Below, one piece after another: positions 3,158 to 53,290 of a DNA stretch of 64,000 nt. Source of the stretch: Candidatus Magasanikbacteria bacterium CG10_big_fil_rev_8_21_14_0_10_36_32 (GTDB lineage: Bacteria > Patescibacteriota > Patescibacteriia > Magasanikbacterales > GWA2-37-8); the NCBI GenBank assembly GCA_002778465.1, contig PFBV01000002.1, positions 2,312 through 66,311 on the forward strand, given 5' to 3'. Every line of letters starts with the position of its first letter. Position 1 is the first letter of the stretch. The notes below the pieces were generated by a model that saw only the letters and a list, made by a program, of their open reading frames with translations, was not told the DNA's origin and searched no databases. The position numbers were made by a program, and so were the translations under genes.

Positions 3158-3975
3158 AAATTAAATGGCTCAATTTAGTTCTATGGTTAACGAATAAAGT
3201 TTATACTTTAAAAAAGAACTTGGTTGAGAGGACGGGACTTATTATTATTGTAACAGTGATAAAACTGTTAATTTTGGAAGTTGTATTGGCAATTATTTCA
3301 TTGCCACTTTATTTGGGTCTTAAAACTAAAACAACTGCCGTTTATTTGGCAGAAAAAAGCGGTTTTGGGCAGGTGGCTTTTGATTATCGTTTGCGTCGGC
3401 TGTTAACTTTAACTGGAGTTGGTGTTATTTTTTTAATTTGGACAGTAAAATTAATTTTGATTATTTCCGTACCCCGCGTTTATGGCCAGTTGCAATTATA
3501 CAAAGTCGTGAATTTTCAATCCGGCACGGGCTTGTCGCAACAGTTGATTAAAACTGAAACAGATATCCAAACCGCCAAAATTTCCAATAAAATTATTGTG
3601 CCAGTGATTGAAAATGTCACAAAAACAGGGATGGACAGTTATGCAGTATCCGGCTCAGGACAATCATTTTCCACGGTGGCAGTTATGCTAACCGGACAAC
3701 AAACAATAATTTATACCATTCAAGCTGATAATAATGGTTATTGGACAATGATTCACAATCAAAAGAATTTTAGGCTGAATGATGGAAATCATTCATTATT
3801 AGCGTTTACTTATGATAAAAAAACTGGGCAGCGCAGCGATATTTCTCCGGAACAGTTCTTTAAAGTTAAGACATCATTGATAGATCGTTTAGTGAAAAAC
3901 ATAGATACCCTGACTAATTGGTCGGTGGTTATTGTAATTTTATTGGGATTATTTTTAACCATCCTAACAATATGA
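3154..3975 (+). CDS. Membrane protein with Ig-like beta domain and C-terminal TM anchor; short paralog of the downstream giant protein
   Basis: ATGA overlap with the upstream stop. The N-terminus (IKWLNLVLWLTNKVYTLKKNL ... EVVLAIISLPLYLGL) aligns by eye with the giant protein N-terminus (ISWLKIFFKLSGRIFELKQKL ... EIVFVFISLPLYFAV). The C-terminal part (ADNNGYWTM...LNDGNHSLLAF + TM helix) resembles the giant protein C-terminus (ADNQGNWHV...LSSGEHTVYAV + TM helix). Confidence 0.6.
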   Translation: MKIKWLNLVLWLTNKVYTLKKNLVERTGLIIIVTVIKLLILEVVLAIISLPLYLGLKTKTTAVYLAEKSGFGQVAFDYRLRRLLTLTGVGVIFLIWTVKLILIISVPRVYGQLQLYKVVNFQSGTGLSQQLIKTETDIQTAKISNKIIVPVIENVTKTGMDSYAVSGSGQSFSTVAVMLTGQQTIIYTIQADNNGYWTMIHNQKNFRLNDGNHSLLAFTYDKKTGQRSDISPEQFFKVKTSLIDRLVKNIDTLTNWSVVIVILLGLFLTILTI

Positions 3976-6900
3976 TGATTAGTTGGTTAAAAATATTTTT
4001 TAAACTTTCCGGGCGGATTTTTGAATTGAAACAAAAATTATCCCAAACTGACAGTTGGATAAAATCTTTGCCTTACGCTTTCCTTTTGATTTTAGACGAA
4101 ATAGTTTTTGTTTTTATTTCTTTGCCGTTGTATTTTGCCGTGCCGCCCAAAAAAGTTCAAGAAAAAGGAATTTTATTTCCTTCAGCCGAACCGGAAACCG
4201 AAAGAATGAAAATGTTTTTTATCAGAAGAAAAATAAGTTTAATTGCTTTTATCACCGCATTGGGAATGTTAGTTTTAAAATTTTTGGTAATCGGCGGTAT
4301 TTCTTTTTATTTGATGGGCGGGCAATTGCTTTTGGCTGCCACTCAAGATTGGCTATTTACCGTCCCTGGCGATTATGCTTATGACAGTTCAAAAATTGAA
4401 TTTGTTGGAGGGATTGCCAGATTGAAAAATTTGGGAACAACGGTTACAGGCAGTACCACTAATGCTAATTTTAATACCAATGCTACTGGCTGGACTTATG
4501 CTGATTGGGATCAAGGCGGTGGTGAGGCGAATGTAGTTGGAACTTATGTGGCATCAGGGGGAAATCCAGGCGGATTTGTTCAAATTAATTTTCCAGTTGG
4601 TAAAAGCGATGAGTTTGGCGGATATTGGCGTCAAGGTTTTGCAATCACGGAAAATAATCCAACCGCAACCCTCAGTTTTGATTGGTCAATAACCGCTTTT
4701 GACAATACTCCCGCCCCAGTCACATTTAAACTTTATGCTTTCATAGATACAGGAACAGGTGTTCCGGTTATTGGTCAAGAAGTTTGGAAATCAGAAGAAA
4801 TTACCGCAACAAGCGCTTGGGTTTCTATGACAAATTTAAATATTTCTTCAAAAGTTACGGCCGCTGGCACTTATTATTTAAAAATTGCGGTATGGTTGGA
4901 AACCCCAAATAACAACACAGGTCCTTTTACGCTTGGTTACGATAATGTCATAGTCAATTGGTCAAAAACTACGATTGTTTATGATTCTAATCGTCCGACA
5001 ATTATACCAAACAATTCTTTAACACCGGTCAATCCGGCGATTTGGAGTTCTTTTACAGAAACAGCTACAAAAAACGGAGGAGAAATTTATTATCAGTTAT
5101 CGGCTGATAATGGTTCTACTTGGAACTATTGGAATGGTTCGTCTTGGATATCCGCCGGCGCGTCTAATTATAATACCGCCATTGTTGTTAATAATAATAT
5201 TGCCGGTTTTTCTACCAGCACCAACAAAATAAAATGGAAAGCTTTTTTGGAAAGCAATGGCAGTCAACAAGTTAGTTTAAGCAAGGTTTCCATCGGCTAT
5301 ACGGAAAATTCCGCTCCCAGTATTTCTGAAGTAGTTCCTGTTCAGCAGACAGATAAAGGCCAAGTTTATATTTCTTATAATTTAACTGATGTTGAAAGCG
5401 ACCCCTCCAGTTTAATTACTTATGAATATTCTTTGACGGGCGCTTTTTCCGGGGAACAGGTGACAATGATAGCGTCCACTACTAATCCAATGCACAATGG
5501 TGTGTCCGGTTTGTCGGCTTCTCCGTCTGGCATCTCGCATATTTTTGTTTGGGACGGAATTATTAATTTGCCCAATGTTTACAACACTAGTACTTATGTT
5601 CGTTTGCGCGCCAATGACGGTATCGCAAGTGGTGTTTATGTCACTTCTTCAGCTATTACGATTGATTATGTAGCACCGGTTATTAGTAATTTATCTGTTA
5701 CGCAAAATTCCGGCAGTGCTAATTTTGATATTTCTTATGATTTATTTGATAACACTTCTGATAATATAAATATTGTTTTAGAAATCTCTGATGATGGCGG
5801 TTTGACTTGGGTTGTGCCGACTGTGTCATCAGTCGGAGATTTGGGTTCCAGTGTTACAGCCGGTATCGGAAAAGTAATTACTTGGAATGCCGGAGTTGAT
5901 TATCCGGCTCATCAAGTTTCCAATATGCAAGTTCGTCTTTTGGTTAAAGATAAATATCAAAATCAAAGCGTTTATTTTAATTCAGTCAATTTTGAATTAG
6001 ATACTTTGGCGCCGGTGGCTGCAATTACAGTTGATTTAATGGCTCAGCCAAATGCCGGCGATACCGCAGTTTTAATTTTTGGTTCTTTTATTGAAACAAA
6101 TCCTAATTATAACAATTTTTTTGTTGGAGTAAACAATGGAGATTATGGTTCGGCCACAGTCGGTGATAGTAATACAATTTCTCCTTCTGCCCAGTTGGTT
6201 GCTACCGGTGTAACCTTAACTGGCGCTGATTATATTGGTAAAGCAAAGATTGCTCACACTGATGATTTTGGTTTTTCAACTGATAATGAAAATTTTTCTC
6301 CCAATAGTTCATATAAATATGTAAAACCTTATACTCCACCGGCGCCGACAGTAGGTAATCCGGCAGAAGGGTCGTTAGATGTCACTATCAACAAATATTC
6401 TTCTGAAGCTGATGGATTAGAATATTTAGTTTTTGAGAATACCCAATCAAAATATATTCAAGGCGATGGTTTATTAAGTGATAGTCCTGTTTGGTTGTCA
6501 TCAGGAACAATAACTGTAATCGGCTTGTCTGATCCTTTGTCGCAATATATTTTTAAAACAAAATCTCGCAACAATAGCGATGCGGCACATACTCTAACCA
6601 GTGAGAGTGAATGGTCGTCCGGCGCGTCTACTGATTATCAATCACCATCCGTAACAATCAATTCCGTTGCACAGACTATTAATGGAACTAAATATGTGAC
6701 AGTTGATTATGTTGGTATTGATTTTCAGAATGCTCAGAATAATCTGGTAGTATATGAATATTCCACCGATGGTTTTGGTTGGATGACAATGACGGAAAAA
6801 GTTGGTGTAGATTCCAACGGTGTAAGCGGTTTAAGTTTTTCTTCCGGCGGAACGGCTTTCAAATTCGCGTGGGATGTTGGAAACGATTTGTTTTTAACCG

Positions 6901-9683
6901 AAGATTCCACTGTTTATGTTCGTCTTCAATCCAACGACTCTATTAACAGTAGTAATCTATCTGTTTCGTCCGCTTTTTTTGTGGATACGGCCGGACCAAT
7001 AATTTCCAATATTAATGTTAGTCAAGCAACTTCTTCCAATAATATTATTATTAATTATGATTTAACAGATACTGCCGGAGCTGATAATTTTATTGAATTA
7101 TTAATCTCTGATGATAGTGGCAGTTCTTATGTTGTAAGCGTGTCTGCGGTTACCGGCGACATTGGCGAAGGTGTCAGTTCCGGTATTGGAAAAGAAATTA
7201 TTTGGAACGCTGGGACGGATTTTAACGGACAAGAGCAGTCTGATATGCGGATAAAAATCCGTGCTAAAGATAGATATCAAAATCAGGGAGATTTTACAGA
7301 ATCATCTGATTTTCTTTTAGACACCAAAGGGCCAATTGTTAGTGATGTAAATGCGGTTCAATCAAGCAGTACCGTGTTAATAAATTATACTTTATCTGAA
7401 AATGTCGGTTTAGTTGTGTTTGAGGTGTCTGATGACAGTGGATTAACTTGGGTGGTATCCACCAGCAGTGTCAATGGTGATATTGGCGCCGATCAATTGT
7501 CCGGTTTAAAAAATTTCCAGTGGAATGCCAAAATTAATTTTAATGATCAAGAACAAAACGATGTGATGGTTCGTATTAGGGCAACTGATTATTTTAATAA
7601 TGTGGGCGATTATGTTTCGTCGGCTATTTTTTCTTTAGATACTAAACCTCCGGTTATAAGCAATATTACCGCTAATCAAACTCTGAATACAAAAGATTTT
7701 TCATTTAGTTATGAATTATCCGATGCTTCAGCCACAGCCACCATAGTATTGGATATTTCTTCCAATAGCGGTTTGGATTGGAATGTGGCGACTAGTACTC
7801 TCTCTGGAGATTCGGGAGATAATATTACCATGGGTGTTAAAAGTTTAATTTGGAATGCTGGTACGGATTTCAATGATCAGGAGAGTAATGTTATGCGTTT
7901 ACGTTTTCGTGCCACTGATGCTTGGGGTAATGAAAGTTTATTTTTTGAATCATCCGATTTTTCAGTGGATACAGCCGCTCCATCTGGTTTGTCGGAATTA
8001 ACCAAATATAGCATTACTGCAACTTCAGTGACATTAAATTGGTCATCCGGAGTAAATGATTCAAATTTTAATCATTATGAACTGTGGTATGGCGCGAATC
8101 AAAATGATGTTTTAAACAGAGCTGGTTCTGCGGACAAGTGGGATTCATTGGATGATGTTGATTTGAATAATATTACTACAATTTCTACAATTATTTCAGG
8201 AACAAGTTTTATTACTACTAAATATATAAAAATTTGGGCGGTTGATAATTATGGCAATGAATCATCGGCGCCGGATATTTCAGTAATTTATATTCCGCCG
8301 ACAGTGACCTATGATTTAATAGTGCAGGCGCCTACCGGTTCAGGCTCAATTAATCCGGCAATTGGCACTCATACATATAGTAAAGGAACCAATGTAGAAA
8401 TTACCGCTACTCCGGATAGTGGTTGGAATTTTGGTGGTTGGATTTTGGATGATTTATCAGGAGGCAATACAAATCCATTAACTTTAATAATGAATGCCGC
8501 GCATACAATTGGCGCTGTATTTAGTGAGGAAACCGTATCTGTTCCTGAAAAACAAGCGCCATCAGGCGGCGCGCCATTAGTTGTGATTGAGGCAACAGAT
8601 ACTACTCCGCCAACCGCGCCGATTTTAACGCCGGTTGCCGGACCACTGTCTTCAACCAGGGTAAAAATTTCCGGTTTAGCCGAACCTGGTTCAAAACTTT
8701 TTTTATACGATAAGGAAAGTCTGGTGGGACAATTAAGTTCTTTGGTTGGTAACAATGGAAGATTTGAACAAACTTTTGTTTTTAATGAAGGTGAACATAT
8801 TTTAACTTCCAAGGCGGTTGACACCAAAGGAAATCTTAGTCAGATTTCAGAATCAATTACATTTGTGATTGATTTAACTCCGCCGGATGCGCCGCAAATT
8901 TTATCTCCGAAAGAAAACAGTGTTTTATTGGCTAATGAATTAGTTTTGGTTGGTTTATCCGAACCGTTAACCGTTATGGAAATTAATTTAAGAGAAAATA
9001 TTTACAATACTGTCGCCAACGAAAGAGGAGTTTGGCAATTTAACATCTTTAATGTTACTGAAATTATACAAGGACGCCAGACAGTGACTGTACGAGCTAA
9101 AGATGCGGCTGGAAATATTAGCCGGCCTGTAACTTGGATAGGTACAGTAACAGTAGTCACGACCACTGGTGCTATTTATCCGATTCAAATTTTACCACCG
9201 GAAATAATTTCTCCGACTCCGTTGGCGCCGGCATCAATAATTCGTGAAGTTAACCAAGCAATTGAGACCACAGCTATAACGACTCCGTCAGTGGTCAGTG
9301 TTGAATTTTCCGGAGCCGATGACATTATTAGTTTTGCCGGCAAAGCTAAACCCGATGAAGAAGTGATAATTTATATTCATAGTAATCAGGCGGTAGTTTA
9401 TCGTACTGTGGCGGATAATCAAGGTAATTGGCATGTTCATCATTCACAAAATGAATTGGAATTATCCTCCGGTGAGCACACGGTATATGCGGTTGGCATT
9501 AACAGTGAAACAAATCTTAAAAGTCCGCCAAGTTTGATAGGGACATTTATTATTGAAAAAAATTGGTGGGTTAATATTTATAGGCATTTTAATTTTACCT
9601 CAACTTTAATTACCATTGCTGTTTTATTGATGGTTATGTCGTGGTTGTATTGGTTACGCCGTCGGGAAACAGTTAAAATTTAA
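3972..9683 (+). CDS. Giant (~1,903 aa) membrane-anchored, repeat-rich surface protein (adhesin-like)
   Basis: Likely start is ATG 3972 (ATGA overlap with the upstream stop); the ORF-track start 3918 lies inside the upstream gene. Architecture: two N-terminal TM segments, then a CBM/galactose-binding-like region (WTYADWDQGGG...NVIVNW). About six ~110-aa modules share ISN(L/I)xVxQ...(I/V)SDD(G/S)G(L/S)(T/S)W...(I/F)xWNAGxD...(V/I)R(L/I)xAxD...DTxxP, at nt ~5311-6005 and ~6650-7975. These are followed by an FN3-like domain (VTLNWSS...YELWYG), an InlB-B-repeat-like domain (GWNFGGWILD), Ig-like domains (DTTPPTAP.., DLTPPDAP..) and a C-terminal TM plus basic tail (WLYWLRRRETVKI). Confidence 0.8.
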   Translation: MMISWLKIFFKLSGRIFELKQKLSQTDSWIKSLPYAFLLILDEIVFVFISLPLYFAVPPKKVQEKGILFPSAEPETERMKMFFIRRKISLIAFITALGMLVLKFLVIGGISFYLMGGQLLLAATQDWLFTVPGDYAYDSSKIEFVGGIARLKNLGTTVTGSTTNANFNTNATGWTYADWDQGGGEANVVGTYVASGGNPGGFVQINFPVGKSDEFGGYWRQGFAITENNPTATLSFDWSITAFDNTPAPVTFKLYAFIDTGTGVPVIGQEVWKSEEITATSAWVSMTNLNISSKVTAAGTYYLKIAVWLETPNNNTGPFTLGYDNVIVNWSKTTIVYDSNRPTIIPNNSLTPVNPAIWSSFTETATKNGGEIYYQLSADNGSTWNYWNGSSWISAGASNYNTAIVVNNNIAGFSTSTNKIKWKAFLESNGSQQVSLSKVSIGYTENSAPSISEVVPVQQTDKGQVYISYNLTDVESDPSSLITYEYSLTGAFSGEQVTMIASTTNPMHNGVSGLSASPSGISHIFVWDGIINLPNVYNTSTYVRLRANDGIASGVYVTSSAITIDYVAPVISNLSVTQNSGSANFDISYDLFDNTSDNINIVLEISDDGGLTWVVPTVSSVGDLGSSVTAGIGKVITWNAGVDYPAHQVSNMQVRLLVKDKYQNQSVYFNSVNFELDTLAPVAAITVDLMAQPNAGDTAVLIFGSFIETNPNYNNFFVGVNNGDYGSATVGDSNTISPSAQLVATGVTLTGADYIGKAKIAHTDDFGFSTDNENFSPNSSYKYVKPYTPPAPTVGNPAEGSLDVTINKYSSEADGLEYLVFENTQSKYIQGDGLLSDSPVWLSSGTITVIGLSDPLSQYIFKTKSRNNSDAAHTLTSESEWSSGASTDYQSPSVTINSVAQTINGTKYVTVDYVGIDFQNAQNNLVVYEYSTDGFGWMTMTEKVGVDSNGVSGLSFSSGGTAFKFAWDVGNDLFLTEDSTVYVRLQSNDSINSSNLSVSSAFFVDTAGPIISNINVSQATSSNNIIINYDLTDTAGADNFIELLISDDSGSSYVVSVSAVTGDIGEGVSSGIGKEIIWNAGTDFNGQEQSDMRIKIRAKDRYQNQGDFTESSDFLLDTKGPIVSDVNAVQSSSTVLINYTLSENVGLVVFEVSDDSGLTWVVSTSSVNGDIGADQLSGLKNFQWNAKINFNDQEQNDVMVRIRATDYFNNVGDYVSSAIFSLDTKPPVISNITANQTLNTKDFSFSYELSDASATATIVLDISSNSGLDWNVATSTLSGDSGDNITMGVKSLIWNAGTDFNDQESNVMRLRFRATDAWGNESLFFESSDFSVDTAAPSGLSELTKYSITATSVTLNWSSGVNDSNFNHYELWYGANQNDVLNRAGSADKWDSLDDVDLNNITTISTIISGTSFITTKYIKIWAVDNYGNESSAPDISVIYIPPTVTYDLIVQAPTGSGSINPAIGTHTYSKGTNVEITATPDSGWNFGGWILDDLSGGNTNPLTLIMNAAHTIGAVFSEETVSVPEKQAPSGGAPLVVIEATDTTPPTAPILTPVAGPLSSTRVKISGLAEPGSKLFLYDKESLVGQLSSLVGNNGRFEQTFVFNEGEHILTSKAVDTKGNLSQISESITFVIDLTPPDAPQILSPKENSVLLANELVLVGLSEPLTVMEINLRENIYNTVANERGVWQFNIFNVTEIIQGRQTVTVRAKDAAGNISRPVTWIGTVTVVTTTGAIYPIQILPPEIISPTPLAPASIIREVNQAIETTAITTPSVVSVEFSGADDIISFAGKAKPDEEVIIYIHSNQAVVYRTVADNQGNWHVHHSQNELELSSGEHTVYAVGINSETNLKSPPSLIGTFIIEKNWWVNIYRHFNFTSTLITIAVLLMVMSWLYWLRRRETVKI

Positions 9684-12796: not shown

Positions 12797-14278
12797 ATGA
12801 AGCCGGTGAAATTTTTTGAAAAAGTCGCCGGTTCCAAAAGCAAAACGTTTATTTCGTTTTGCTTTTGTTTTATTATGGGGGTTGGTTTTTTTTCTTTTAT
12901 TGAAATATCAGGAACAAAACTTTATTACTTATTAATTTGCGGTTTTGTAATTTTATTTGGTTTGATATTTTGGTGGAAAAATAAAGTGGCGCGGTTGATT
13001 TTATTGTGTTTATTGTTTGTAGTGTTGGGCAGTATGCGTTTTGTTGGTGAAATGATGTCGTCTCAGGCGGTAACAAATAATGATGGTCGGTTATTTTATG
13101 GAATTGTGGACGAAGAACCCAATTTTAAAATTGATAATGCTGAATATATTGTATCAACGGAATTTAATGAAAAAGTCTTAATCCGCCTTCCTCTTTATCC
13201 GCAATATAATTATGGCGATCGTTTAATGATTGATTGTCTTCCGGCACTTCCACAAAATTATCCTTCCGGCATATTTGATTATCGTCGTTATTTATCCAAT
13301 CAAGGAATTTTTTCGGTTTGTTTTAATCCTCCAGTCACAAAAATCGGAATTGATGAAGGTAATTTATTAAAATCAATTTTATTAAAAACCAAGAATATGG
13401 TCAGCGAACAGATAAACAGATTATTTGTTGAACCAGAAAGCAGTTTGTTGGCAGGTTTATTATATGGAGGACGCAGCGGTTTGCCTAAAGAATTGTCTGA
13501 TAGTTTTCGTCGGACAGGTTTGAGTCATATTGTGGCGGTATCAGGTTATAATATTTCCATTATTTCCGTGATATTTTTAAATATTTTAATTGTTCTTGGT
13601 TTTTCTCGTCCAAAAGCTTTTTGGTTGGCGATAATTGGTTTAGTTTCTTTTGTAATATTTACCGGCGCTTCCGCTTCAGTTGTCCGTGCCGGTATTATGG
13701 GATCATTGGTGTTGATTGCCGAAAAAGTTGGTCGGTTATCGGATGCCGGACGGTTGTTGTTTTTAGCCGGCGCTTTAATATTGCTGGTTAATCCGCGTTT
13801 ATTAGTTTGGGACGCAGGTTTTCAGTTGTCTTTTTTGGCTACTTTGGGTTTAATTTATTTAACGCCACATTTATGGTTTTCCAAAAGAAAAATTCCGGAA
13901 TTATTTTTTAACATAGTCAACCCGACTGTGGCGGCGATTATCGCTACCGCGCCGTTGATTATGTTTCAATTTGGACAGTTATCTTTGTCCGCTTTACCGG
14001 CTAATGTTTTAGTAATTTGGATGATACCATGGCTAATGTTGTTTGGATTTTTATCATTGTCTTTGGGGTGGATTTTTTATCCCTTGGGACAAATAATCGC
14101 GTGGTTGACAGGTTTTGGTTTAAAATATGTTATAATGGTGACAAGTTGGTTTTCTGCCCGAACCTGGGCGGCGGTTGAAATGAATATTTCTTGGTGGATG
14201 ATGTTAATAATGTATTTGTTAATTGTTTTATTTTTTTATGCCAAAAGTAAAAATTTTATCATCGGTCGCCGGATATGA
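12797..14278 (+). CDS. comEC: ComEC/Rec2-family DNA-uptake channel, N-terminal part (OB/DUF4131-like plus Competence domain), lacking the MBL domain
   Basis: 493 aa polytopic membrane protein. Contains the competence-domain signature region LLAGLLYGGRSGLPKELSDSFRRTGLSHIVAVSGYNISI...FTGASASVVRAGIMG. It ends without a beta-lactamase domain. Confidence 0.8.
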   Translation: MKPVKFFEKVAGSKSKTFISFCFCFIMGVGFFSFIEISGTKLYYLLICGFVILFGLIFWWKNKVARLILLCLLFVVLGSMRFVGEMMSSQAVTNNDGRLFYGIVDEEPNFKIDNAEYIVSTEFNEKVLIRLPLYPQYNYGDRLMIDCLPALPQNYPSGIFDYRRYLSNQGIFSVCFNPPVTKIGIDEGNLLKSILLKTKNMVSEQINRLFVEPESSLLAGLLYGGRSGLPKELSDSFRRTGLSHIVAVSGYNISIISVIFLNILIVLGFSRPKAFWLAIIGLVSFVIFTGASASVVRAGIMGSLVLIAEKVGRLSDAGRLLFLAGALILLVNPRLLVWDAGFQLSFLATLGLIYLTPHLWFSKRKIPELFFNIVNPTVAAIIATAPLIMFQFGQLSLSALPANVLVIWMIPWLMLFGFLSLSLGWIFYPLGQIIAWLTGFGLKYVIMVTSWFSARTWAAVEMNISWWMMLIMYLLIVLFFYAKSKNFIIGRRI

Positions 14279-14843
14279 TTTGTCTGCCGCCGATTATGAT
14301 AAAAAAGAAAAATATTTAAACAGTTTTGAAAAAAATAAAATTTGGCTATTGTTGGGATATTTATCTGGAAAAAAAATTTTAGATGCCGGAACAGGAACTG
14401 GACGTTTAGCTGTTGAAATGTCAAAAAATGGCGCGGAAGTAACCGCTCTTGATGTGTCGTCAGAAATGTTAAAACAGTTGTCGCGTAAAAGTAATAAAAT
14501 AAAAACCATGATTGGCGATGCTGAATGTTTGCCTTTTGACAAAGAGATTTTTGATTTGGTGACAGCCGCTTTTTTAATCGTTCATTTTAAGGATCCTTCT
14601 CGTTTTTTTGACGAAGCTTATCGTGTATTGAAAGATGGTGGAAGATTATTGGTGACAAATATTAATCAAAAAGAACCGCCAGAAATAAAAACTAAGCAAG
14701 GAGTTATAAAAATTGAATCGTTTTATCATCGCCCGGAAAAAATCAGGGAGATTTTACAGTCATTGGCTTTTACCATTGAAAAAGAAATTATTGTTAAAGA
14801 AGGGGAGAATTGGATAAATCAGATAATAGTAGCTAAAAAATAA
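14238..14843 (+). CDS. Class I SAM-dependent methyltransferase
   Basis: Motif I ILDAGTGTGRLA, acidic post-I (ALDVS), and LKDGGRLLV. ATG at 14238 (track start 14223 is TTG). The 5' end overlaps the end of the ComEC channel gene. Confidence 0.75.
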   Translation: MPKVKILSSVAGYDLSAADYDKKEKYLNSFEKNKIWLLLGYLSGKKILDAGTGTGRLAVEMSKNGAEVTALDVSSEMLKQLSRKSNKIKTMIGDAECLPFDKEIFDLVTAAFLIVHFKDPSRFFDEAYRVLKDGGRLLVTNINQKEPPEIKTKQGVIKIESFYHRPEKIREILQSLAFTIEKEIIVKEGENWINQIIVAKK

Positions 14844-14846
14844 TTC

Positions 14847-15123
14847 ACCCCGTTAGAGATATTTATGGTTTATATTTATTTAATGCAGAGCAAGAAAGAT
14901 AATCTTTGGTATACAGGTGCTACTAGAGATTTAAAAAAACGTTTTAAAGAGCATAATGATGGGAAAGTAAAAGCAACAAGGGATAGAAGACCTTTTGTGT
15001 TAATATATTATGAAGCTTGTTTGAATGAACACGATGCTTTTACTCGTGAAAAATATTTAAAGTCAGGAATGGGAAAACGTTATCTTAAAAATCGTTTAAA
15101 ACGTTTTTTATCTCTAACGGGGT
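14847..15123 (+). mobile_element. GIY-YIG ORF cassette bracketed by a perfect 15-bp inverted repeat
   Basis: ACCCCGTTAGAGATA at 14847-14861 and its exact reverse complement TATCTCTAACGGGGT at 15109-15123 enclose the 86-aa ORF. The cassette exactly fills the spacer between the methyltransferase stop and the ComEC-MBL start. Confidence 0.45.
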
Positions 15124-15125
15124 AA
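14865..15125 (+). CDS. Small GIY-YIG nuclease-superfamily protein
   Basis: 86 aa. VYIYLMQS...LWYTGATRDLKKRFKEHNDGK...PFVLIYYE fits the GIY-(x10)-YxG..R..E..N layout. Paralog of the ORF at 47285-47527. Confidence 0.8.
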   Translation: MVYIYLMQSKKDNLWYTGATRDLKKRFKEHNDGKVKATRDRRPFVLIYYEACLNEHDAFTREKYLKSGMGKRYLKNRLKRFLSLTG

Positions 15126-15128
15126 ATT

Positions 15129-15986
15129 ATGAAAAAGTTGTTTATAGTTATAGTAGTTGTCCTGCTGTTAAGCGTGGGCTTATTTTATTATATTCATTTT
15201 TCCGCCAATGAAAAAAAATTTGATATTATTTTTTTTGATGTTGGGCAAGGCGATGCAACGCTGGTGCGTTTTGAAGATGGAAGTAAAATGTTGGTAGATT
15301 GCGGACCGGACAGGACTATTTTGAAAAAACTCGGACAATATCTTCCTTTTTATGACCGGACGATTGATTATTTGCTTATTACTCATCCGGACAATGATCA
15401 TTATGGCGGTTGTGTTGACGTATTGCGTCGTTATCAAGTGAAAAATATAATTACAAATAGTGATCGTAAACCGGACGATACTTTTTGGCAAACTTGGCGT
15501 TTTTATGAAGAAAATGAAGATGCAAAAATTTTTATCATTGATGAACCGCAAATTTTTGAAATTGGGAACAATAAAATTGAATTTATTTATCCGGATACAT
15601 CTTTAATTTTATCTTCAGCCGGCGATACCAGCAATAATCAATCGTTGGTTTTTCGTTTAGTTGATAAAAGTGTAAAAGTTTTATTTACCGGAGATATTGA
15701 AGAATCATTGGAAAATGCTTTGATAAAAAAATATTGTTCAATTACAAACTGCCCTTTTTTATCAGCTGATATTTTGAAGGTCGCCCATCATGGCAGTGAC
15801 ACGTCAAGCAGTGAAGAATTTTTGAATGCGTCTAATCCGAAAGCGGCAGTGATTTCCGTCGGTCAGAATCGTTTTGGACATCCGTCTTTGCGAGTTTTGA
15901 AAAAGATGGAACGTTTACCGGTAATTGTTTTGCGCACTGATGAGTATGGCGATATTACATTTGACAAAATTTTAAAAACATGGTAA
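15129..15986 (+). CDS. ComEC-type metallo-beta-lactamase domain protein (C-terminal part of a split ComEC)
   Basis: N-terminal TM helix, then FFDVGQGDATL, ITHPDNDHYGG, FTGDIE and KVAHHGSDTSSS, the typical ComEC MBL-domain motifs. Confidence 0.8.
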   Translation: MKKLFIVIVVVLLLSVGLFYYIHFSANEKKFDIIFFDVGQGDATLVRFEDGSKMLVDCGPDRTILKKLGQYLPFYDRTIDYLLITHPDNDHYGGCVDVLRRYQVKNIITNSDRKPDDTFWQTWRFYEENEDAKIFIIDEPQIFEIGNNKIEFIYPDTSLILSSAGDTSNNQSLVFRLVDKSVKVLFTGDIEESLENALIKKYCSITNCPFLSADILKVAHHGSDTSSSEEFLNASNPKAAVISVGQNRFGHPSLRVLKKMERLPVIVLRTDEYGDITFDKILKTW

Positions 15987-19060: not shown

Positions 19061-20403
19061 TATTTAATATGTTATCTCGCCTTACTAATTATCTTATCCT
19101 CTTATTTTTATTTGCGTTGCCTTTTCAAACCCGTTGGATTATTGAATATGGAATTTTAAATAATCGTCCATGGGAATTTGGGACTATCAGTTTGTATGGT
19201 ACGGAATTTTTTTTATGGCTGATAGTGATTTTGACCGGCATTCGGATTTTTGGCCGACCGGATTTTTGGAAATCATTCTCAAATTGTAGAATCAATGCTG
19301 ATTATTTTAAAATGCACAAAAAAAATATATTGGCTGTTTTGATTTTTTTATTCAGCACGGCTGTTTTTATACGTTCCGGCAATCCGATATCATGGCAATT
19401 TACCACTTGGTTTTTGGGAGGAATATGTTTAATGATTTCAATAGCTGTATCTGAATTATCTTTTTCCCGTGCCGGCATGACATTGTGGTTAAGCGGGGTT
19501 GTGCAAGGAGTATTGGCAGTTCAACAATTTTTTTATCAAAAAATTATTGGTTCAAAATGGTTAGGTATGTCCGCACAAAATTCAAGTGACTCAGGAGTTA
19601 GTGTGGTGCAGTTTGGTGACGAACGCTGGCTGAGAGCCTATGGCAGTTTTGGATGGCCTAATTCTTTGGGAATTTATTTAGCAGTTATCTTTGTTTTGGG
19701 TTTAATTTTATATTTTTATTTTTCTAAAACTAAATGGCGAATATTAATCCTGGTGGGACAATTGATTATTCTAACGGGGTTATTATTGTCTTTTTCCCGC
19801 GGTGCTTGGTTGGCGGCAGTTGGCGGTTTGCTTATTTTTGGGTTGATTGCTTGGAATAATCTGCCTTTTGAATTTACGCGGCGTAAATTTTATAGTCAAT
19901 TTGTAAAACAGTTGGCAGTTTATGCGGTATTAGTAATCAGTCTGGTGACGATTTATTTTCCAGTTTTTACAAATCGGTTTAATACAGGTAATTATTTGGA
20001 ATATTTATCTATAACGGAACGGCAAGATCAATTGAATGTTGCTGGTCAGATGATATCGGACAATTTATTTTTTGGTGTTGGCCCCGGATTGTACACTAAT
20101 TATTTGGCTAGATATTTTGTTTCGCCGACATATGGAGTTTATCAGCCTGTCCATAATATTTTTTTATTAGCACTGGCTGAATTGGGTATATTTGTGTTTT
20201 TATTTATTTTGGTCTTTGTCTTTTGGTTGATTAAAAAAATCGGTCGCGCCGGACCGATTTATTTTTCCGTTTTGACAGTTTTGTTTTTAGCCGGTTTTTA
20301 TGATCATTTTCTTTGGAGTTTATACGCCGGTCAGTTGATTTGGTGGGTGGTTTTGGCTTTAGGATTAATGTTAAAAAAATCGCAATCCAATATTGAAAAA
20401 TAA
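19039..20403 (+). CDS. O-antigen ligase/Wzy-like polytopic membrane protein
   Basis: ~10 TM helices with the LLSFSRGAWLAAVGGLL loop signature of the Wzy_C/O-antigen ligase family. An alternative ATG at 19069 avoids overlap with the upstream gene. Confidence 0.65.
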   Translation: MEKQNKLIFNMLSRLTNYLILLFLFALPFQTRWIIEYGILNNRPWEFGTISLYGTEFFLWLIVILTGIRIFGRPDFWKSFSNCRINADYFKMHKKNILAVLIFLFSTAVFIRSGNPISWQFTTWFLGGICLMISIAVSELSFSRAGMTLWLSGVVQGVLAVQQFFYQKIIGSKWLGMSAQNSSDSGVSVVQFGDERWLRAYGSFGWPNSLGIYLAVIFVLGLILYFYFSKTKWRILILVGQLIILTGLLLSFSRGAWLAAVGGLLIFGLIAWNNLPFEFTRRKFYSQFVKQLAVYAVLVISLVTIYFPVFTNRFNTGNYLEYLSITERQDQLNVAGQMISDNLFFGVGPGLYTNYLARYFVSPTYGVYQPVHNIFLLALAELGIFVFLFILVFVFWLIKKIGRAGPIYFSVLTVLFLAGFYDHFLWSLYAGQLIWWVVLALGLMLKKSQSNIEK

Positions 20404-27898: not shown

Positions 27899-28030
27899 AT
27901 TGAAAAGTTATTCACATTTTTAGCTATTCCAAGCATTCGTATTGTGTTATACTAATATAGTAATTGAACAGTTTATGATTGAGCCAAAAAAATATTTTTT
28001 CTCAAACAAATTGGCTTGATTTTGATATTT

Positions 28031-31000
28031 ATGATGAAATGTCCGCGAAAAATTAGTCTGAAAATTTTAATGGCCTTATTTATCGTGTCAGGTTTTTTTG
28101 GCACGGCGATTTTTGGAGTGGAAAAAGCTCAGGCGCAATACGATAATCAAATCAATGCTTCGTTTTTATCTTGGCAGGCGCAGGGTGAAGCGGAAAAAGC
28201 CAAGGCCGAAGTTCAGTCAAATTTATTGAAGAATAAAAATTACATGGTGATGAATGCGGTTATTAATGCCATGAGTTATTTTGCCAATAAAATTTCTTAT
28301 GATATGGCTGTTTGGCTGGCATCGGGTGGAAAAGGACAAGCGCCGTTTTCAAGTACTTCCGGATTTTTTAAATATTTAGGGCAAGTAACCGGAGATTCTC
28401 TCGGTGAATCGCTTGGTTCATTGGGTGAGAGTCTTGGTTTAAATATCTGCGATTTGCCGGATCCGCGGCTGGACTTGGCGCTTCAATTAGGTTTAAATTT
28501 TCATTATGCTGAACCGACACCGAAATGTTCCTGGCAGGATTTAAAAAAAGCTTACAGCGTGGAAAATTTTAAAAGTAAATATCTGAGTCAGGAAGGAACC
28601 ATTGGAAGGTTGTCCGCTTCAGTGACGGTTAAAGATACTGATTTTGGCATTTGGACTGACGCTCGCGCTAAGATTGACGGCATAGCTGTTCAAAAAGAAA
28701 ATGCCGCCCAAGCTGATCGTGAAGAAGGAAGCGGTATGAAAGCTGTAACCGATTTAATTTCCGGACAAGTTAAAACGCCGGCCGTGGTAGTGAAAGACAC
28801 GATGATGAAACAGTCGGCTGACAGTAAAATGACAAAAGAGGAAGCAAAAAAGACCGGTGAGGTTTGGGGAGCTTTCGGCGCGGGCGCTACTCAAGTCGCG
28901 TATAAAGCGGCCAGCACTTTTATCAGTACCATGCTTGGTACGGTGCTTAAGAATTTTATGGAGGGTGGTATGTTGCCGGGAGGACACAAAGTTTGTAATC
29001 CGGGTTTGACATTGACCGGTGTTAATTTGGAACCGTGTTCCAGTGATTCTTCAGGCGGCAATAATTTAGCTGATAATTATTACGCTGACGCCAGAAATAC
29101 TGATAATCGTGCCGCCGCTCAAGCTATGTTTAGCCAATTGTTGATACCCCAAATAAAAACTCTGGATAATTATAATTTGATTGCCAGTTTGGCGGAATGT
29201 TCACCTGAAAATTTATCGCCGGACAGTTGTGTGGTAGATCAATCGTTTTTACAAATTTTACAGTCAGCCGATAATGGAGAATCTTTAACTGTTAAACAGG
29301 CGATGGAAAAAGGCTGGCTACACGGAGATTGGAAAATGATTTCATCGCTTGATAAAGCCGCTTCGCAAAAACAAGATTGTTCCCAGAGCGCTTATTGTCA
29401 GCGTAATATGACATTTTTGCGTCAAGCCAGAATTTTGTCGGTTGGTTTTGAATTTGCCGCGCTTTTATCGCCGGTAAATAATCCGGTTAGCTTAAAAGAA
29501 GTAGTAGACAATTTTTATACCGTTGGCAGTCCTTATTATCATTTGATTAATCCGCATTGGGTTATTAAATTGCCAAAAATTCGCTGTAAAGCTTTTACTT
29601 TCAGTTCTATCGCTCAAAATGGCGCGCGATTGGAAGAATGTTCTGATTTGCAACATTGTGTTGGTTACAATAAAGACGGTTCTTGTCAGACTTGGGGTTA
29701 TTGTATGAAAGAACGTCCAATTTGGAAATTTAATGCCAATTACTGTGATTCGCAATATAGCACTTGTCGAGCATTTACTGATTCTGATGGAAATAGCGTC
29801 GGATATTTGGTTAGAACGTTGGATACCAGTTTTTGCGGAGAAGATACAGATGGTTGCCGTCGTTATTCGGCCGGTAAAGTTTATGCCAGCGCTACTAATT
29901 CCGTTTGGTTGCCGGAAGAAATAAAATATAATACCGTTTCTAATTATTTTTACAATTCCAGTTTATATTTTAATAAAAAACTAACCAGCTGTGACGCTAA
30001 AGATGACGGTTGTTCGGCTTTTAAATTAGCTTCTAAAACTGATACTTTATTATATTTGCGCAAAGCGCCGGATTATCTCGGTTGTTATGATGCTGATTTA
30101 AAATCAGTTCCGGCTAAATTATATGATGGAATTGCTTGGCCGAAAAATTTAACCGAATTAAGTTTGGTTACTCCGCAAAATACTGAAGCTTGTAAAAATT
30201 ATGCTCAGGTTTGTTTGCCTGAAGAAGAAAATTGCAATCTCTACACTTCTGTTTTAAATCAGGAAGCAATACCTGGTAAATTTAAACCGGCTGAAATAGT
30301 TTCCATGACCGCCGGTCAGCAATTAGTTTGGAATGATCAGTGCGATGCTTCTTGTGTCGGTTATGCCGCTTATAAAGAAATGCCAAGCAGTTATACTAAT
30401 GGAGAAAATTTGGCATATATTATTCCTTCATCCGGAAACACCTGCACATCTTATGATGCAGGTTGTTCAGCTTTTACGAATTTGAGCACCACTAATCCGT
30501 CAGGTATGGAACAAACTGAATATTTTTCTTATTTGCGTTCCTGTATTTTGCCGGATCAAACAAAACAAAAAACTTTTTATCTTTATGAAAGTTCAGAATC
30601 AGGCGGATATAAACTGCAAACTTTTGTTTTAGAAAAAGACGCTACTGGCGCGCCAAAACAAATTTGGCGAGATATATCTGAAATTGATTCATTTGGTGAT
30701 TGTGATTCAACCAGTTATGCCGCCGGAACGGCTGATCCGGATTGTCATCAGTTTAATGACGATGGTGGAAATATTTATTATAAATATCTTTCAAAAACAA
30801 TTTTAGTATCGGAAAATTGCAATCCTTATCGTTTGAACAATACCGAGTTGGTTGATGGACAATGTCCGTTTGATTTTGACGGTTTTGGCAATCGTGTTGG
30901 TAATGCGGTGGAGAAAATCAATGAGGCTTGTTATTATTATGGTTTGCCGGTAGGAGATACCAGGGGAGCAGGGGAAACAAAAGTTTGTTCAGCCGCGACT

Positions 31001-34000
31001 AATTCATGCCGCGCCTACAAGGGTAATGCCGGCAATAATGTGCGGGTGGTTTTTCAAGATAATTTTGAAAATGAAGAAATAGGCGATTGGTCTGGAGGTT
31101 TGGGCGGCAGTTTGGAAATTTCCTTGGAATCAAATCAAATTAATGGCCATTCATTAAAGAATTTTGGTCAAGATGGTTTTTATCGTCAGAATGTTGAGGT
31201 TGCAGAAGGTAAGAGTTATGTTTTAACTTTTTGGGCCAAAGGTAATGCTATTATTTTTCCTTCTTTTCAAGATGAAGGAGTTTATAAATTAAGTTTTGGT
31301 GATGCGGTTAGCTTGACTGATGTTTGGCATTATTATTCTTTCGGACCGTTAGAATTTAATCAATCAGTTACCAGTACATATTTAAATTTTAATATTTCAG
31401 GTACGGGATTAAAAAATGTTTTTATAGACAATATAAAATTAATGGAAATTACCGATTACCTGTATTTGGTTAAAAACAGTTTAAGTGTTAATCAGATTTG
31501 TGATAGTAATTTGGAAGATAATATGCCGGGTGAGGCGTTGGGTTGCACGGCCTATAAAGATCCATTAAATAATATATATAATTTAACCAATTTCAGTTAT
31601 CTTTGTCGTGAAGCGGCGGTTGGTTGTACTGCTGTGTTGGATACATATAATACTTTGAATACTGCCGAACCGCGTACTTATAATGTGTGGCTTTATGGCG
31701 AGATGATAAATTTAGATGGTCGGAGCGCTGAGGTGGTAATCGGTGGAAAAACTTTTTCATGTATTGTGCCGACAGGAGCGAAAGGTTGTTATGTTGATAT
31801 TTTTGGACCGACTTTGGCGCAAATAGTAAGTGTTAGTGTTCCTGGTATTTTAACTTCTTCCACTATTTATATTCCGGGAGATACGCCAACCAGTTCACCG
31901 ATTTATTTGGTGGCCAACAAATCGGCAACTTGTAAATCTGAAAATATCGGTTGTCGATCGGTTGGAAAAGGCACTGTCACCAGAGATGGAGTATTGAATC
32001 CTTTGTCCAGTGAATATGAAGATGTGGCGGTTAAAAATGATCCGGCGCTGTTTGATGATGTTTTGTGCGGCAGTGAATCGGTAGGTTGCCGCGGTTACAC
32101 ATCCGGTGACAGCAAATATTATTTTAAAGATCCGAAAATTATCGGCCAACGCGTTTGTGCTTATATGTCCGCTAAAAATGATAGTGGCTTGCCGATTATG
32201 GGTTGGTATTGGAAAGATAATAAAATGTGTGGCGATTCATCCGGATTTTGTTCATCAGATGCCGATTGCGCCGCCGGAGTTAAATGTCAAAATGTTCCGT
32301 GTTATCCTCTTTATTATAAATTTAATGAAACACAAGGCGCTATTGAATGGGGATTGTGGTCTTTTGGCAGTACTCAGTATAAAGGTTTTGTGGGACAATG
32401 TCCTGAAGAACAAAACGGTTGTACTGAATTTATAGATCGTGCCAGCAGCGCTCAGGTTTCTGGTAAAAAATGCGCTTTCACTGGCAAAAAATGTGAACTA
32501 AATAGTGATTGCAATGAAGAAGAAAATGATTATTGTAAAGAAAATGTTTCTGGCACTTATTATCTTTTAAATGATGGAGTTTTGGCTGAAACAAAAAATA
32601 AATGTAATGGCATGGTCAGTCAAGCCGAAGGTTGTATTTTGCTTGATCAAACGGACAAGCCGAATAAATATTGGAATACCACTTCAACCTATGAAGTTTC
32701 CCAATCCGCTCAAGATGCTTTTGTTGTGCCAGTAGATAAAGCCGAATTAAACGATGCCAATATAATTTTAAAAGTTACCCACGACAGAGAATGCGCTGAA
32801 TGGGGATATTGCGATTTAAAACAAGATTATAAAGATGAAGATACTGGTGAAACAACTTCTCGTTGTTATCATTTGGGTGTTTGTCAAAAAGCGACCGGTT
32901 CTTCAATTTTTAACAAAGAATGTTTGGTGCCGGTTACTCAATGGGATGATAAAAATCAGGAACTCTCATTGGCTCATTATAATTCCCGTGAAGCTTATTG
33001 GGATTCTTTGGATTACTCCGGTTATTCAGTGCCATGGCTTTACTCAATTGCTGATTTAACCGCTCGTCCGTTGGCTGGTGATAATTTTCATTTGGTTCAT
33101 GTTGATTACAGTGAAGATGCGGCGGGAGATTGTAATGGCAGCGCCGACAATGGAGATGTTTGCGGTTTGGATGATACGGGAAAGTGTTTTAACGGAGAAT
33201 GTTTGCATTCACCAAATAATTATTCCTCTTTGACTAACCATTTAACATTGTTAAATTGTCGTGGTAACGCCGAAGATTCCAGTCCGTTTCCATCATCTGT
33301 TTTGACTGATGAAAGCGCCAGTTTAGATTATAAAATATTTAAATCAGGATTTGAGAGTGTTAATTTATGTTATGATAAATCCGGCAGTGTGGTAAATTGT
33401 GATTGCAGTTATAAAAAATTAAGAACTTCAGCTGGTGATGTTTATACCCCGTCCAATCAGTCAGTTGGCAGTTCATATGTTTGTAGTGGTGGAACAAAAC
33501 AAGGTAAATTCTGTAATGGAAAAGATGATATCACCACTTGCGGCAGCGATGGTATTTGCGGCGTTATTCAAACATTGAGCGCAATGAACGGCTGGCAGGG
33601 ATATTGTTTGGAACGTGATACGCGACAGTTTATCAATGGCACTGAAACCGGAAATTGTTTGACTTGGTGGCCGATTGAAGTTCCGCCGGGGACTACTAAT
33701 ATTTGGGATATTGACGATTCAGCTGGTTATCAAATTGCTGAAGGAAAACAAGACAGGTTTATGTGTTTGGTTAATGAGCCGGTTATTAACGATCCTGAAA
33801 TAATGATGCATATATTATTATATGGGAGTCATGTTTCCGCAGCCAATGATTATAATATTCAGCAATTACCCAAATCTTATAAAATACAAACCGCCGGTCT
33901 TGACCATAGTTTTAAAATAACCGATTTGCCGCCCAATGCGGCTGTATCTGGTTGTTCGGACAATAATGCGGATGATGATTTTTATGACCCGTTACCTGGA

Positions 34001-47221: not shown

Positions 47222-47273
47222 GGAGAGGTGGCTTCTGAGCTCCTGCCTGCCGGTAGGCAGGGGTCGAAAGCGG
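47222..47273 (+). pseudogene. Duplicated 5' portion (nt 1-29) of tRNA-Ser(GCU), interrupted by 3-nt and 20-nt insertions
   Basis: GGAGAGGTGGCT|tct|GAGCT|CCTGCCTGCCGGTAGGCAGG|GGTCGAAAGCGG compared with the tRNA 5' end GGAGAGGTGGCTGAGCTGGTCGAAAGCGG at 47529-47557. All 29 shared nt are identical. Confidence 0.7.
47242..47261. repeat. 20-bp GC-rich palindrome CCTGCCTGCCGGtAGGCAGG (second copy at 53222-53241)
   Basis: One mismatch from a perfect palindrome. The perfect copy CCTGCCTGCCGGCAGGCAGG is at 53222-53241. GC content contrasts strongly with the background. Confidence 0.8.
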
Positions 47274-47967: not shown

Positions 47968-48003
47968 AATTTTTTAACCAAGATTTTATTTAACGGGGTA
48001 AAT

Positions 48004-53067: not shown

Positions 53068-53096
53068 ATTGTATCACATCTAAATCATTTTGTCAA
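53068..53096 (-). promoter_or_regulatory. Near-consensus sigma70 promoter with no downstream CDS
   Basis: On the minus strand: TTGACA (53096-53091), 17 nt spacer, TACAAT (53073-53068). Confidence 0.5.
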
Positions 53097-53212
53097 CCCC
53101 GTTAGAAAAGCCAATTGAAAAATTTTAGTAATCTTAGCCTAAAAATTGAATAATACCCTGTGGATAAACCTTTAGAAAAGCATCTTTTCGTGGAATAATT
53201 TTCTAACGGGGT
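53096..53212. repeat. ORF-less element bounded by a perfect 14-bp inverted repeat related to the GIY-YIG cassette IR
   Basis: ACCCCGTTAGAAAA at 53096-53109 and TTTTCTAACGGGGT at 53199-53212. It shares the 11-mer ACCCCGTTAGA with the IR at 14847/15123. The interior is 89 nt and non-coding. Confidence 0.55.
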
Positions 53213-53214
53213 CA

Positions 53215-53290
53215 AGCCCGACCTGCCTGCCGGCAGGCAGGCGTAAAAAAGTCGGGGTCCCGACCCCCCAAAGGGGCGTCGGGAGGGATC
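53215..53290. repeat. GC-rich cluster of nested hairpins including the 20-bp palindrome
   Basis: CCCGAC[CTGCCTGCCGGCAGGCAGG..]GTCGGG, then CCCGAC[CCCC-caaa-GGGG]cGTCGGG. Very GC-rich relative to its surroundings. Confidence 0.6.

Follow-up and report, generated by a model that had tools for sequence, protein, structure and literature searches.

Ssn proteins, which are ~94 aa long and consist of a single GIY-YIG domain, cleave single-stranded DNA beside a hairpin repeat (PMC11893778). Their genes are often flanked by the repeat and the hairpin can assemble from two oligonucleotides, while the nucleases themselves modulate natural transformation (PMC11893778). The authors of that work also remarked on the insertion-sequence-like layout of such loci (Chenal et al., 2025; PMC11893778).

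Here we describe a locus with a comparable layout from a 64,000-nt stretch of contig PFBV01000002.1 of a Candidatus Magasanikbacteria bacterium (hereafter the window; G+C content 36.5%). As in the Ssn systems, a ~90-aa single-domain GIY-YIG gene lies inside inverted-repeat DNA, which also exists as many ORF-less copies. In contrast to Ssn, where each flank is a complete 20–50-nt hairpin, each flank here is half of one long-range hairpin and the right half-site falls within the ORF. Target duplications, rebuilt start codons and a nested insertion, all seen here, are not reported for Ssn. The published Ssn repeat motif HGTCWY..RNCYNB had no match in the 300-nt flanks of 80 loci of our family and none in the window; the same regular expression finds the NTS control. 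In its architecture the family resembles the Ssn/NTS system, of which it is at most a putative member, with UPF0213 proteins as its nearest named relatives. We know of no natural role for Ssn nucleases outside Neisseria. On the evidence presented below, we consider it likely that the locus is a mobile element of ~277–291 bp with inverted-repeat ends, whose sole gene encodes an 86-aa single-domain GIY-YIG nuclease. It would belong to a very large and apparently undescribed family, distributed in CPR/Patescibacteria and several other phyla, with nuclease-bearing and ORF-less mini forms.

Results

The window copy is placed between the methyltransferase and metallo-beta-lactamase (MBL) genes of a split comEC operon (Table 1). 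An exact 15-bp inverted repeat (14847–14861, ACCCCGTTAGAGATA, vs. 15109–15123) on either side of the 86-aa GIY-YIG ORF, recognized already in the initial annotation, was recovered at these positions, and self-comparison of the window extended it to 22 bp with a single C/T mismatch. The left arm carries the family core C-CCCGTTAGAGA at 14848–14859 and overlaps the TAA stop (14841–14843) of the upstream methyltransferase gene. The right arm of the 15-bp repeat codes for (L)SLTG plus the T of the stop codon; in its 22-bp form it takes in the whole stop codon and reaches into the downstream ATG (15129), of which it contains the AT. The distances from the upstream stop (14843) and to this ATG are those given before: the element fills the spacer between both genes, its sole coding content being the nuclease ORF, and the stop/start arrangement reads TAA-ATT-ATG. 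When positions 14836–15134 were folded as single-stranded DNA, a 21-bp terminal stem was obtained in both the MFE and the centroid structures (z = −5.0).

Table 1. Features of the nuclease element and of related sequences, in window coordinates.
Feature	Position	Strand	Remark
Left terminal inverted repeat ATAATTCACCCCGTTAGAGATA	14840..14861	.	22 bp, one mismatch to right arm
86-aa single-domain GIY-YIG nuclease ORF	14865..15125	+	Pfam PF01541, E = 1.1e-16
Right terminal inverted repeat TATCTCTAACGGGGTAAATTAT	15109..15130	.	22-bp pair with left arm
Possible solo right-arm relic TTTAACGGGGTAAAT	47989..48003	+	Directly before ATG at 48004
Left TCAA direct repeat of mini	53093..53096	.	Same register as 52/84 metagenomic minis
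ORF-less 115-bp MITE-like mini, C-CCCGTTAGAAAA ... TTTTCTAACGGG-G	53097..53211	.	Same arms as nuclease element
Right TCAA direct repeat of mini	53212..53215	.	Same register as metagenomic minis

The 11-mer ACCCCGTTAGA has five exact matches and one with a single mismatch in the window vs. 0.68 expected, and none of 100 shuffles reached six. In addition to the four copies noted earlier, a fifth exact copy is present at 19770–19780(−); it lies within coding sequence, has no partner arm and is probably a chance match. Two further observations of the initial annotation are real, namely the related ORF-less inverted pair at 53096/53212 and the occurrence of TAACGGGGTAAAT before the ATG at 48004. 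The latter motif has the same spacing to its ATG as the right arm at 15115–15128 and no partner arm; its assignment as a solo right-arm relic is uncertain.

The PF01541 match of the encoded protein (61.3 bits vs. a cut-off of 22.6 bits) covers residues 2–68, and no domain other than GIY-YIG was detected. Among 25 diverse members, Y3, Y5, Y16-T17-G18, R26, H30 and E62 are invariant and N76 nearly so; we take the conserved Tyr, Arg, His, Glu and Asn residues to have the catalytic roles mapped from I-TevI and UvrC. The group I intron endonuclease model TIGR01453 scored 23.9 bits vs. its 56-bit cut-off and covered the catalytic domain alone. The closest solved structures are those of the UPF0213 proteins 1ZG2 (profile E = 1.3e-10) and 1YWL, and YazA shares 46% identity with the window protein over 64 residues (query 3–66). 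At least 4948 homologs were found, the best 120 of these being 70–88% identical. Almost all relatives are exactly 86 aa long and end in ...KRYLKNRLKRFLSLTG, and many are annotated with an N-terminal extension M(N/S)PVR(E/D)NK, which is the translated left arm.

A scan of one genome per species confirmed at least 584 stretches, from which the best 80 loci were used (81 with the window). Their proteins are 65–76% identical to the window protein across phyla, the hosts including many CPR lineages, Omnitrophota, Bdellovibrionales, Thermodesulfobacteriota, Planctomycetota, Nitrospirota, Clostridia and Elusimicrobiota. In all lineages the protein is under strong purifying selection. Viral contigs contained just five distant relatives (40–56% identity) and plasmids three distant matches, while PHROGs and PADLOC gave no match for the element protein; phages and plasmids are therefore not evident carriers.

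A perfect 12–17 bp inverted repeat with the core CCCGTTAGAGA / TCTCTAACGGG was present in 78 of the 81 loci. The arm pairs around the ORF span 269–316 bp, and the loci come from at least 12 phyla. In an alignment of 95 elements, the 13 paired positions were 89–100% Watson–Crick, vs. 45–47% after shuffling. Covariation was seen at the outer position (C-G 48, T-A 34, G-C 2, A-T 1) as well as at the inner ones (T-A 55, C-G 24, A-T 13), and G-T pairs made up merely 0–2%. Judged from these alignments, this pattern is easier to reconcile with complementary DNA strands, or with a protein-binding site present in two identical copies, than with an RNA helix. The codons of the right arm are fixed (Ser TCT 74/74, Leu CTA 74/76, Thr ACG 77/77), whereas other Ser, Leu and Arg positions of the equally conserved C-terminus use 4–6 synonymous codons, which indicates selection on the right arm at the nucleotide level. 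The DNA fold, and hairpins beside the right arm in many minis, had suggested that the 3′ coding region might hold a conserved subterminal hairpin. This idea was rejected: the candidate codon positions lacked covariation, and an alignment of 74 sequences yielded no structure with RNAalifold. Except in the last four codons, the invariance of the C-terminus is therefore due to constraint on the protein.

The same arms bound ORF-less minis of 24–130 bp at many of the fetched loci and in the window (Table 1). A metagenome scan for arms 85–115 nt apart yielded at least 120 minis, of which 84 were analysed; groundwater samples of the Hainich and Rifle type were among those rich in them. The base next to CCCG/CGGG on the outer side was complementary in 81 of these 84 (T/A 53, C/G 28). 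One base beyond the arms, a perfect 4-nt direct repeat was found in 52/84 minis (shuffle mean 7.9, maximum 17), while any other register gave 0–1 of 84. The duplications read T-N-N-A (TGAA 14, TTCA 12, TAAA 6, TGGA 5, TTTA 4, and others). A perfect repeat in the same register occurs in 11/17 genome minis and in 26/78 nuclease-bearing copies. From the aligned loci, the ends of the element are shown to be N-CCCGTTAGAGA ... TCTCTAACGGG-N′, where N′ is the complement of N, and insertion to duplicate T-N-N-A. In the window copy the repeat is longer and the target duplication is absent. For copies of this type, a duplication sought in the standard register and further out (AATT) gave nothing convincing, and the flanks ATT(C/T)AC...GTAAAT prolong the inverted repeat in place of it.

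Sixteen pairs of minis were 70–100% identical over the aligned interior with unrelated flanks, nine of them at 76–86% over most of the interior, and one pair resided on a single contig. An exact 24-mer of the window copy had no match in the metagenome contigs, hence there is no sign of very recent spread from that collection. The initial annotation had held that abundance of the motif irrespective of GIY-YIG genes would mark it as a generic repeat or terminator. The motif is indeed abundant without such genes, and this is explained by non-autonomous derivatives, not by a generic terminator.

The sampled sequence also bears on an alternative in which the cassette is non-autonomous cargo: a transposase encoded elsewhere, e.g., of the DDE type, would move cassette and minis in trans, and the nuclease would be a passenger with some other role. 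A 4-nt duplication together with inverted-repeat ends is classic of DDE transposons, strand-transfer activity is not known for GIY-YIG enzymes, and the minis far outnumber the nuclease genes, only two family copies being present in 794 kb around minis. Yet no arms joined to a larger element were found in 1.27 Mb sampled around 213 loci. The left-to-right arm spans in this sample were <60, 60–135 and 261–300 bp, with none of 600–3000 bp, and the nuclease ORF was the only coding sequence between arms. That its 3′ end serves as the right arm under nucleotide-level selection is also hard to reconcile with a passenger. We consider the cargo explanation unlikely and retain the nuclease-borne element as the preferred reading.

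Individual loci record the insertion events. In L074, a GIY-YIG gene with its own arms and a TGAA repeat stands at the start of an AcrB-like gene and is broken at the codons Tyr-Leu (TAT TTA) by a 448-bp insert. This nested insert contains another element with a nuclease gene, followed by TTTA, a mini and a further TTTA. Removal of the insert and one TTTA copy gives a full-length, 85-codon GIY-YIG ORF collinear with the family consensus, and from this reconstruction the duplication of 4 nt and the limits of the element (C-CCCG...CGGG-G) are both fixed.

Relatives of the window organism retain the gene order ComEC(N)-methyltransferase-MBL-NusA-YidC and differ at the site of the element. An empty site in relatives, suggested in the initial annotation as a check, was found in L085 (MBL 56% identical), in which a single base separates the methyltransferase stop from the MBL start (TAA-A-ATG). 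At this junction the spacer of L084 is unrelated, and in L082 (74% identical) the right arm is missing. In L083 (65% identical) a 110-bp internally deleted copy is present at exactly the site of the window element, so minis can arise by deletion; by this comparison, at least some of them are shown to do so. The first 86 nt of this copy match the window element at 84 positions (97.7%), vs. 74% for the adjoining 3′ end of the methyltransferase gene. The element is thus far younger at the site than the divergence of the two hosts, a gap in sequence identity that implies transfer or homing-like conversion. The closest protein relative among the at least 4948 homologs (88%), L086, comes from the same sample as L083 and is positioned between prfA and sua5, a junction which in the window is 12 nt long and element-free. 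Insertions at one gene were shared by two Omnitrophota (tpiA), two CPR genomes (pheT) and two Clostridia (trxB). As far as sequences can tell, insertions common to related genomes indicate long residence and possibly a host-level role.

The genes downstream of the elements are varied and mostly housekeeping (tpiA, trxB, gap, pheT, topA, pyrG, pilins and others), with no enrichment of competence genes. In 26/78 nuclease copies the next ORF begins right after CGGG, the string GGG-ATG-A containing the nuclease stop and the host start together. An ATG, GTG or TTG composed of the terminal base and two flanking bases was present in 34/78. Likewise, an ORF (≥60 aa, or ≥30 aa if running off the contig end) starting with the last base of the element plus TG adjoins 50/84 minis; 29 of these ORFs lie to one side and 21 are on the opposite strand. 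To the left of the element the original ATGAA copy remains, and either the nuclease is read in frame from this left ATG or a short leader (e.g., MNPVRD*) terminates a few bases ahead of the ATG of the nuclease. From the loci compared, surviving insertions are shown to be mostly at the first bases of host genes. The start-codon bias would follow if A/G-T-N-N-A-T/C sites were preferred and if gene-dense genomes lost those insertions that are disruptive; a more direct mechanism of start-codon targeting is a possible alternative. An intron-like removal from RNA was discarded by inference, as splicing would allow elements anywhere in ORFs, while survivors cluster at start codons.

These data also address the long-range hairpin that the initial annotation proposed to regulate or process the cassette transcript, taken here as an RNA structure acting on the translation or processing of both the cassette and the gene downstream of it. 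The 16S anti-Shine-Dalgarno sequence is similar to the left arm, and a Shine-Dalgarno sequence to the right arm (TAACGGGGT vs. TAAGGAGGT, 7/9 positions), the right arm is located 5–8 nt before the next ATG in window-type copies and the predicted stem is stable. However, the pairing is strictly Watson–Crick although RNA would tolerate G-T pairs, the minis occur equally in both orientations to the adjacent gene, and target duplications and the nested insertion are DNA events. Rfam gave no match to the element; searches of the whole window at the gathering threshold and of 52700–53800 at E ≤ 1 returned a tRNA, the start of the 16S gene and sub-threshold noise only. We regard an RNA function of the arms as highly improbable. 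A Shine-Dalgarno-like motif is absent from most window genes.

Five loci have a nuclease ORF that lacks a stop and continues in frame into a type IV pilin-like protein. The fusion point is exactly the prepilin cleavage site (...SLTG|FTLIE...), and the upstream stub is the original leader peptide plus G-F-T, e.g., MKTLFELKERG-FT in L060. In L060, Pfam detected T2SSG (E = 3.5e-24) together with the N-methylation motif, which it also detected in L032. In the search with a chimeric query, such pilin fusions were a small minority.

Another explanation supposes a domesticated, Ssn-like, site-specific nuclease serving the host on single-stranded DNA, e.g., in the control of transforming DNA that enters the cell, with arms and minis as its recognition sites and spread being historical. 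The layout parallels NTS-ssnA-NTS, Ssn nucleases act on natural transformation, the protein is under strong purifying selection and some insertions are common to related genomes; in addition, the window copy is inside the comEC operon and fusions to type IV pilin genes exist among other copies. Against it, the Ssn motif is absent from the window and from all 80 loci, the closest relatives by sequence are UPF0213 proteins and not demonstrably Ssn, and the downstream genes are diverse housekeeping genes in which competence is not enriched. We judge domestication as the principal explanation to be improbable. Such a reading would place the gene between two half-sites for co-inheritance or self-regulation. 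It is compatible with mobility, and both could hold. By analogy with Ssn, the mobile element may also have a host-level role beside mobility, such as control of incoming single-stranded DNA.

Discussion

The proposal of the initial annotation that the repeats are the termini of a tiny nuclease-borne mobile element is borne out by conserved, covarying arms in 78/81 loci, target duplications, a nested insertion, empty, filled and deleted alleles and MITE-like families. We infer that the nuclease itself drives the movement. It is predicted to recognize both arms, which would most plausibly pair to form the stem in a hairpin of single-stranded DNA, a suggestion based on the split recognition hairpins demonstrated for Ssn nucleases, and would cut at the base of this stem. 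Host repair, ligation or replication would then complete excision and insertion. Host functions are invoked here since GIY-YIG enzymes hydrolyse DNA and, to our knowledge, have no strand-transfer chemistry. This leaves the joining step without an enzyme and counts against the preferred reading. Duplications of 4 nt are also seen more typically after staggered cuts of both strands than after transposition of a single strand by way of hairpins (IS200/IS605 leaves none), and the type of duplication is likewise counted against it. So are the missing duplication in window-type copies, the insertions of long residence that related genomes share, and the metagenome collection's lack of a match to the 24-mer.

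After insertion at a start codon, the host ribosome entry site and ATG remain to the left of the element, while to its right an ATG or GTG is restored from its last base (A/G) and the duplicated TG. For the nuclease gene no signals of its own are obvious, and it appears to depend on the translation signals of the host. Its stop, overlapping or closely preceding the host start, suggests translational coupling, as read from the arrangement of the ORFs.

We propose, tentatively and with somewhat less than even confidence, a transposable-element class in which an 86-aa GIY-YIG protein is the only element-encoded function, characterized by start-codon insertion at T-N-N-A, cross-phylum spread and a pilin G|FT sub-lineage that recreates the prepilin peptidase site. 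If the nuclease is the mobilising enzyme, a nuclease class joins the few enzymes that are able to move prokaryotic DNA elements, and the known minimum size of an autonomous element becomes considerably lower (IS200 has ~700 bp, vs. ~280 bp here). The family would offer a rationale for small stand-alone GIY-YIG proteins, to which the annotation of thousands of uncultivated genomes wrongly gives the name "excinuclease ABC subunit C", and ties them to Ssn. It also shows an unusual lifestyle of a parasite in genomes almost without intergenic DNA: insertion at start codons with single-base precision, rebuilding of the start and apparent translational coupling. For annotation of CPR genomes, the arms account for N-terminal extensions that are spurious (MNPVRENK...), for unusual GTG starts and for pilin genes that appear split or fused. 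A ~90-aa nuclease with a 13-bp covarying recognition stem, as predicted here, could be of interest as a programmable cutter of single-stranded DNA.

A literature search for the arm sequence, for GIY-YIG transposases and for GIY-YIG together with terminal repeats or target duplications in bacteria returned nothing relevant, which is no proof of novelty. Among proteins with names or solved structures, the UPF0213 group (E. coli YhbQ, B. subtilis YazA; 1ZG2, 1YWL) is the closest. Its members are stand-alone chromosomal genes, and we know of no report of repeat-flanked ones. Unlike them, proteins of this clade have the near-invariant basic C-terminus KRYLKNRLKRFLSLTG, the end of which is the right arm.

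The features by which IS elements and MITEs are recognized, i.e., conserved terminal inverted repeats, a duplication of fixed length (4 nt), presence/absence polymorphism and diverged copies at unrelated sites, were all found in the family, the duplication being absent from the window copy itself. In this the family is similar to bacterial MITEs and their parent ISs (Correia elements of Neisseria, RUP, Rickettsia palindromic elements), which share the terminal inverted repeats, the short target duplications and the families of diverged copies at unrelated sites, often beside or within genes. It differs from the MITE parents in that the coding relative has only ~280 bp and carries GIY-YIG instead of a DDE, HUH, serine or tyrosine transposase, and from MITEs in that insertion is concentrated at start codons, with the start rebuilt to single-base precision. 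No transposase of a known class (DDE, DEDD, HUH, serine, tyrosine) is encoded by the element, which has the GIY-YIG domain only; as there is also no larger element in the 1.27 Mb, it fits no established IS family. In RAYT/REPIN and IS200/IS605 systems, a gene between inverted repeat copies is similarly accompanied by dispersed non-coding hairpin doublets, and recognition of a single-stranded DNA hairpin is plausible here as it is there. Their enzyme, however, is a HUH Y1 transposase, and IS200/IS605 inserts 3′ of a fixed tetra- or pentanucleotide with no target duplication, whereas here a 4-nt T-N-N-A is duplicated.

Unlike free-standing GIY-YIG homing endonucleases, the protein, at 86 aa in total, has no DNA-binding domain; its gene has inverted-repeat ends and target duplications and occupies dozens of unrelated insertion sites, not one cognate site. 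On the other hand, as with the T4 Seg proteins and I-TevI, a selfish nuclease gene is found between host genes or at their ends. Likewise, at one site (that of the window and L083) the elements of two diverged genomes resemble each other far more closely than their flanks do.

Genomic context of the nuclease element

As listed in the table below, comEC is present in pieces in the window. A gene for DUF4131 plus Competence is overlapped by one for a class I SAM methyltransferase, and the metallo-beta-lactamase is encoded by a gene of its own. The order of these split genes, followed by nusA and yidC, is kept in relatives (loci L083-L085). Since this order is conserved, we conclude that the splitting of comEC is older than the element carrying the first nuclease.

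Window features and their coordinates
Feature	Position	Strand	Remark
Very large ORF	3918-9683	+	1921 aa
Split comEC genes	12797-15986		
Very large ORF	28016-36127	+	2703 aa
ATGs preceded by GGGGT-type motifs	45494, 46142, 48004, 55741		
Duplicate of tRNA-Ser(GCT) 5′ part	47222-47273		upstream of second GIY-YIG gene
Palindrome CCTGCCTGCCGGCAGGCAGG, copy 1	47242-47261		within pseudo-tRNA fragment adjoining second GIY-YIG gene
Second GIY-YIG gene	47285-47527		
tRNA-Ser(GCT)	47529-47624		immediately downstream of second GIY-YIG gene
Region without genes	52798-53763		~970 bp
Palindrome CCTGCCTGCCGGCAGGCAGG, copy 2	53222-53241		7 nt past target repeat of window mini element
GC-rich stretch gtcggggtcccgaccccccaaaggggcgtcgggaggg	53240-53300		internally complementary

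A possible second nuclease cassette and GC-rich palindromes

The second GIY-YIG gene of the window is divergent, with 39% identity to the first nuclease, and the CCCGTTAGAG arms are absent from it. Upstream of this gene the first 29 nt of the tRNA-Ser(GCT) are repeated, reading GGAGAGGTGGCT/GAGCT/GGTCGAAAGCGG, with two interruptions, namely TCT and a 20-bp GC-rich palindrome. The whole unit (47222-47624) resembles a small nuclease cassette of another kind that has inserted into the tRNA gene, with the 5′ part of the tRNA re-supplied. The palindrome, perfect or near-perfect, occurs in two copies that are 95% identical and lie in AT-rich DNA, and could represent one more small mobile hairpin. 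The region without genes contains the GC-rich stretch, for which nothing was matched in Rfam at E<=1.

Solitary arms and arm-like motifs

Most genes of the window lack a Shine-Dalgarno-like sequence, and a few of their ATGs are preceded by GGGGT-type motifs. These motifs (TAACGGGGTAAAT, TAACAGGGTAAAA, AGGGGTTTAC) are similar to the end of the right arm; they may be relics of lost elements that now serve as ribosome-binding sites. The right arm, TAACGGGGT, is itself similar to TAAGGAGGT, with 7/9 positions alike. At one locus (L077, ~2455-2480), the right-arm-like CCTCTAACGGGATGA lies directly against the nuclease element's left arm and provides the end (...KIPLTG*) of the upstream host ORF. 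This sequence is a solo arm relic, now giving the host gene its C-terminus and stop codon.

Nested, possibly rearranged and possibly decaying copies

Three elements, nested or in tandem, were found in locus L074 (140-910), where a second nuclease copy and a mini element (ORF-less, with the same arms) interrupt the first copy and TTTA occurs three times; the right arm of the second copy bears an extra small insertion of ~30 nt. In a Nitrospirota locus (L059, 2200-3050) the arms are clustered in an unusual order, with a right-arm-type sequence upstream of the nuclease ATG, a left-arm-type sequence at the ORF end and two more minis alongside, which suggests a rearrangement between neighbouring elements. 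Among the matches listed, the copy most similar to the nuclease of the window (88%; L086, 1247-1498) has lost one T from the T-run preceding the right arm, and because of this loss its ORF stops early (…RFYL*) at a TAA within the arm. This copy may be starting to decay.

In-frame fusions to pilins

The nuclease is fused in frame to a type IV pilin or pseudopilin at loci L024, L032, L051, L060 and L072, and likewise in the proteins P0241, P0275, P0299 and P0341. The fusion joint is exactly the G|F prepilin cleavage site, and the original pilin leader persists as a stub upstream of the fusions. In a further protein, P0107, the sequence beyond the nuclease (...SLTG|QASLEYFILF...) may resemble an archaeal-type pilin signal.
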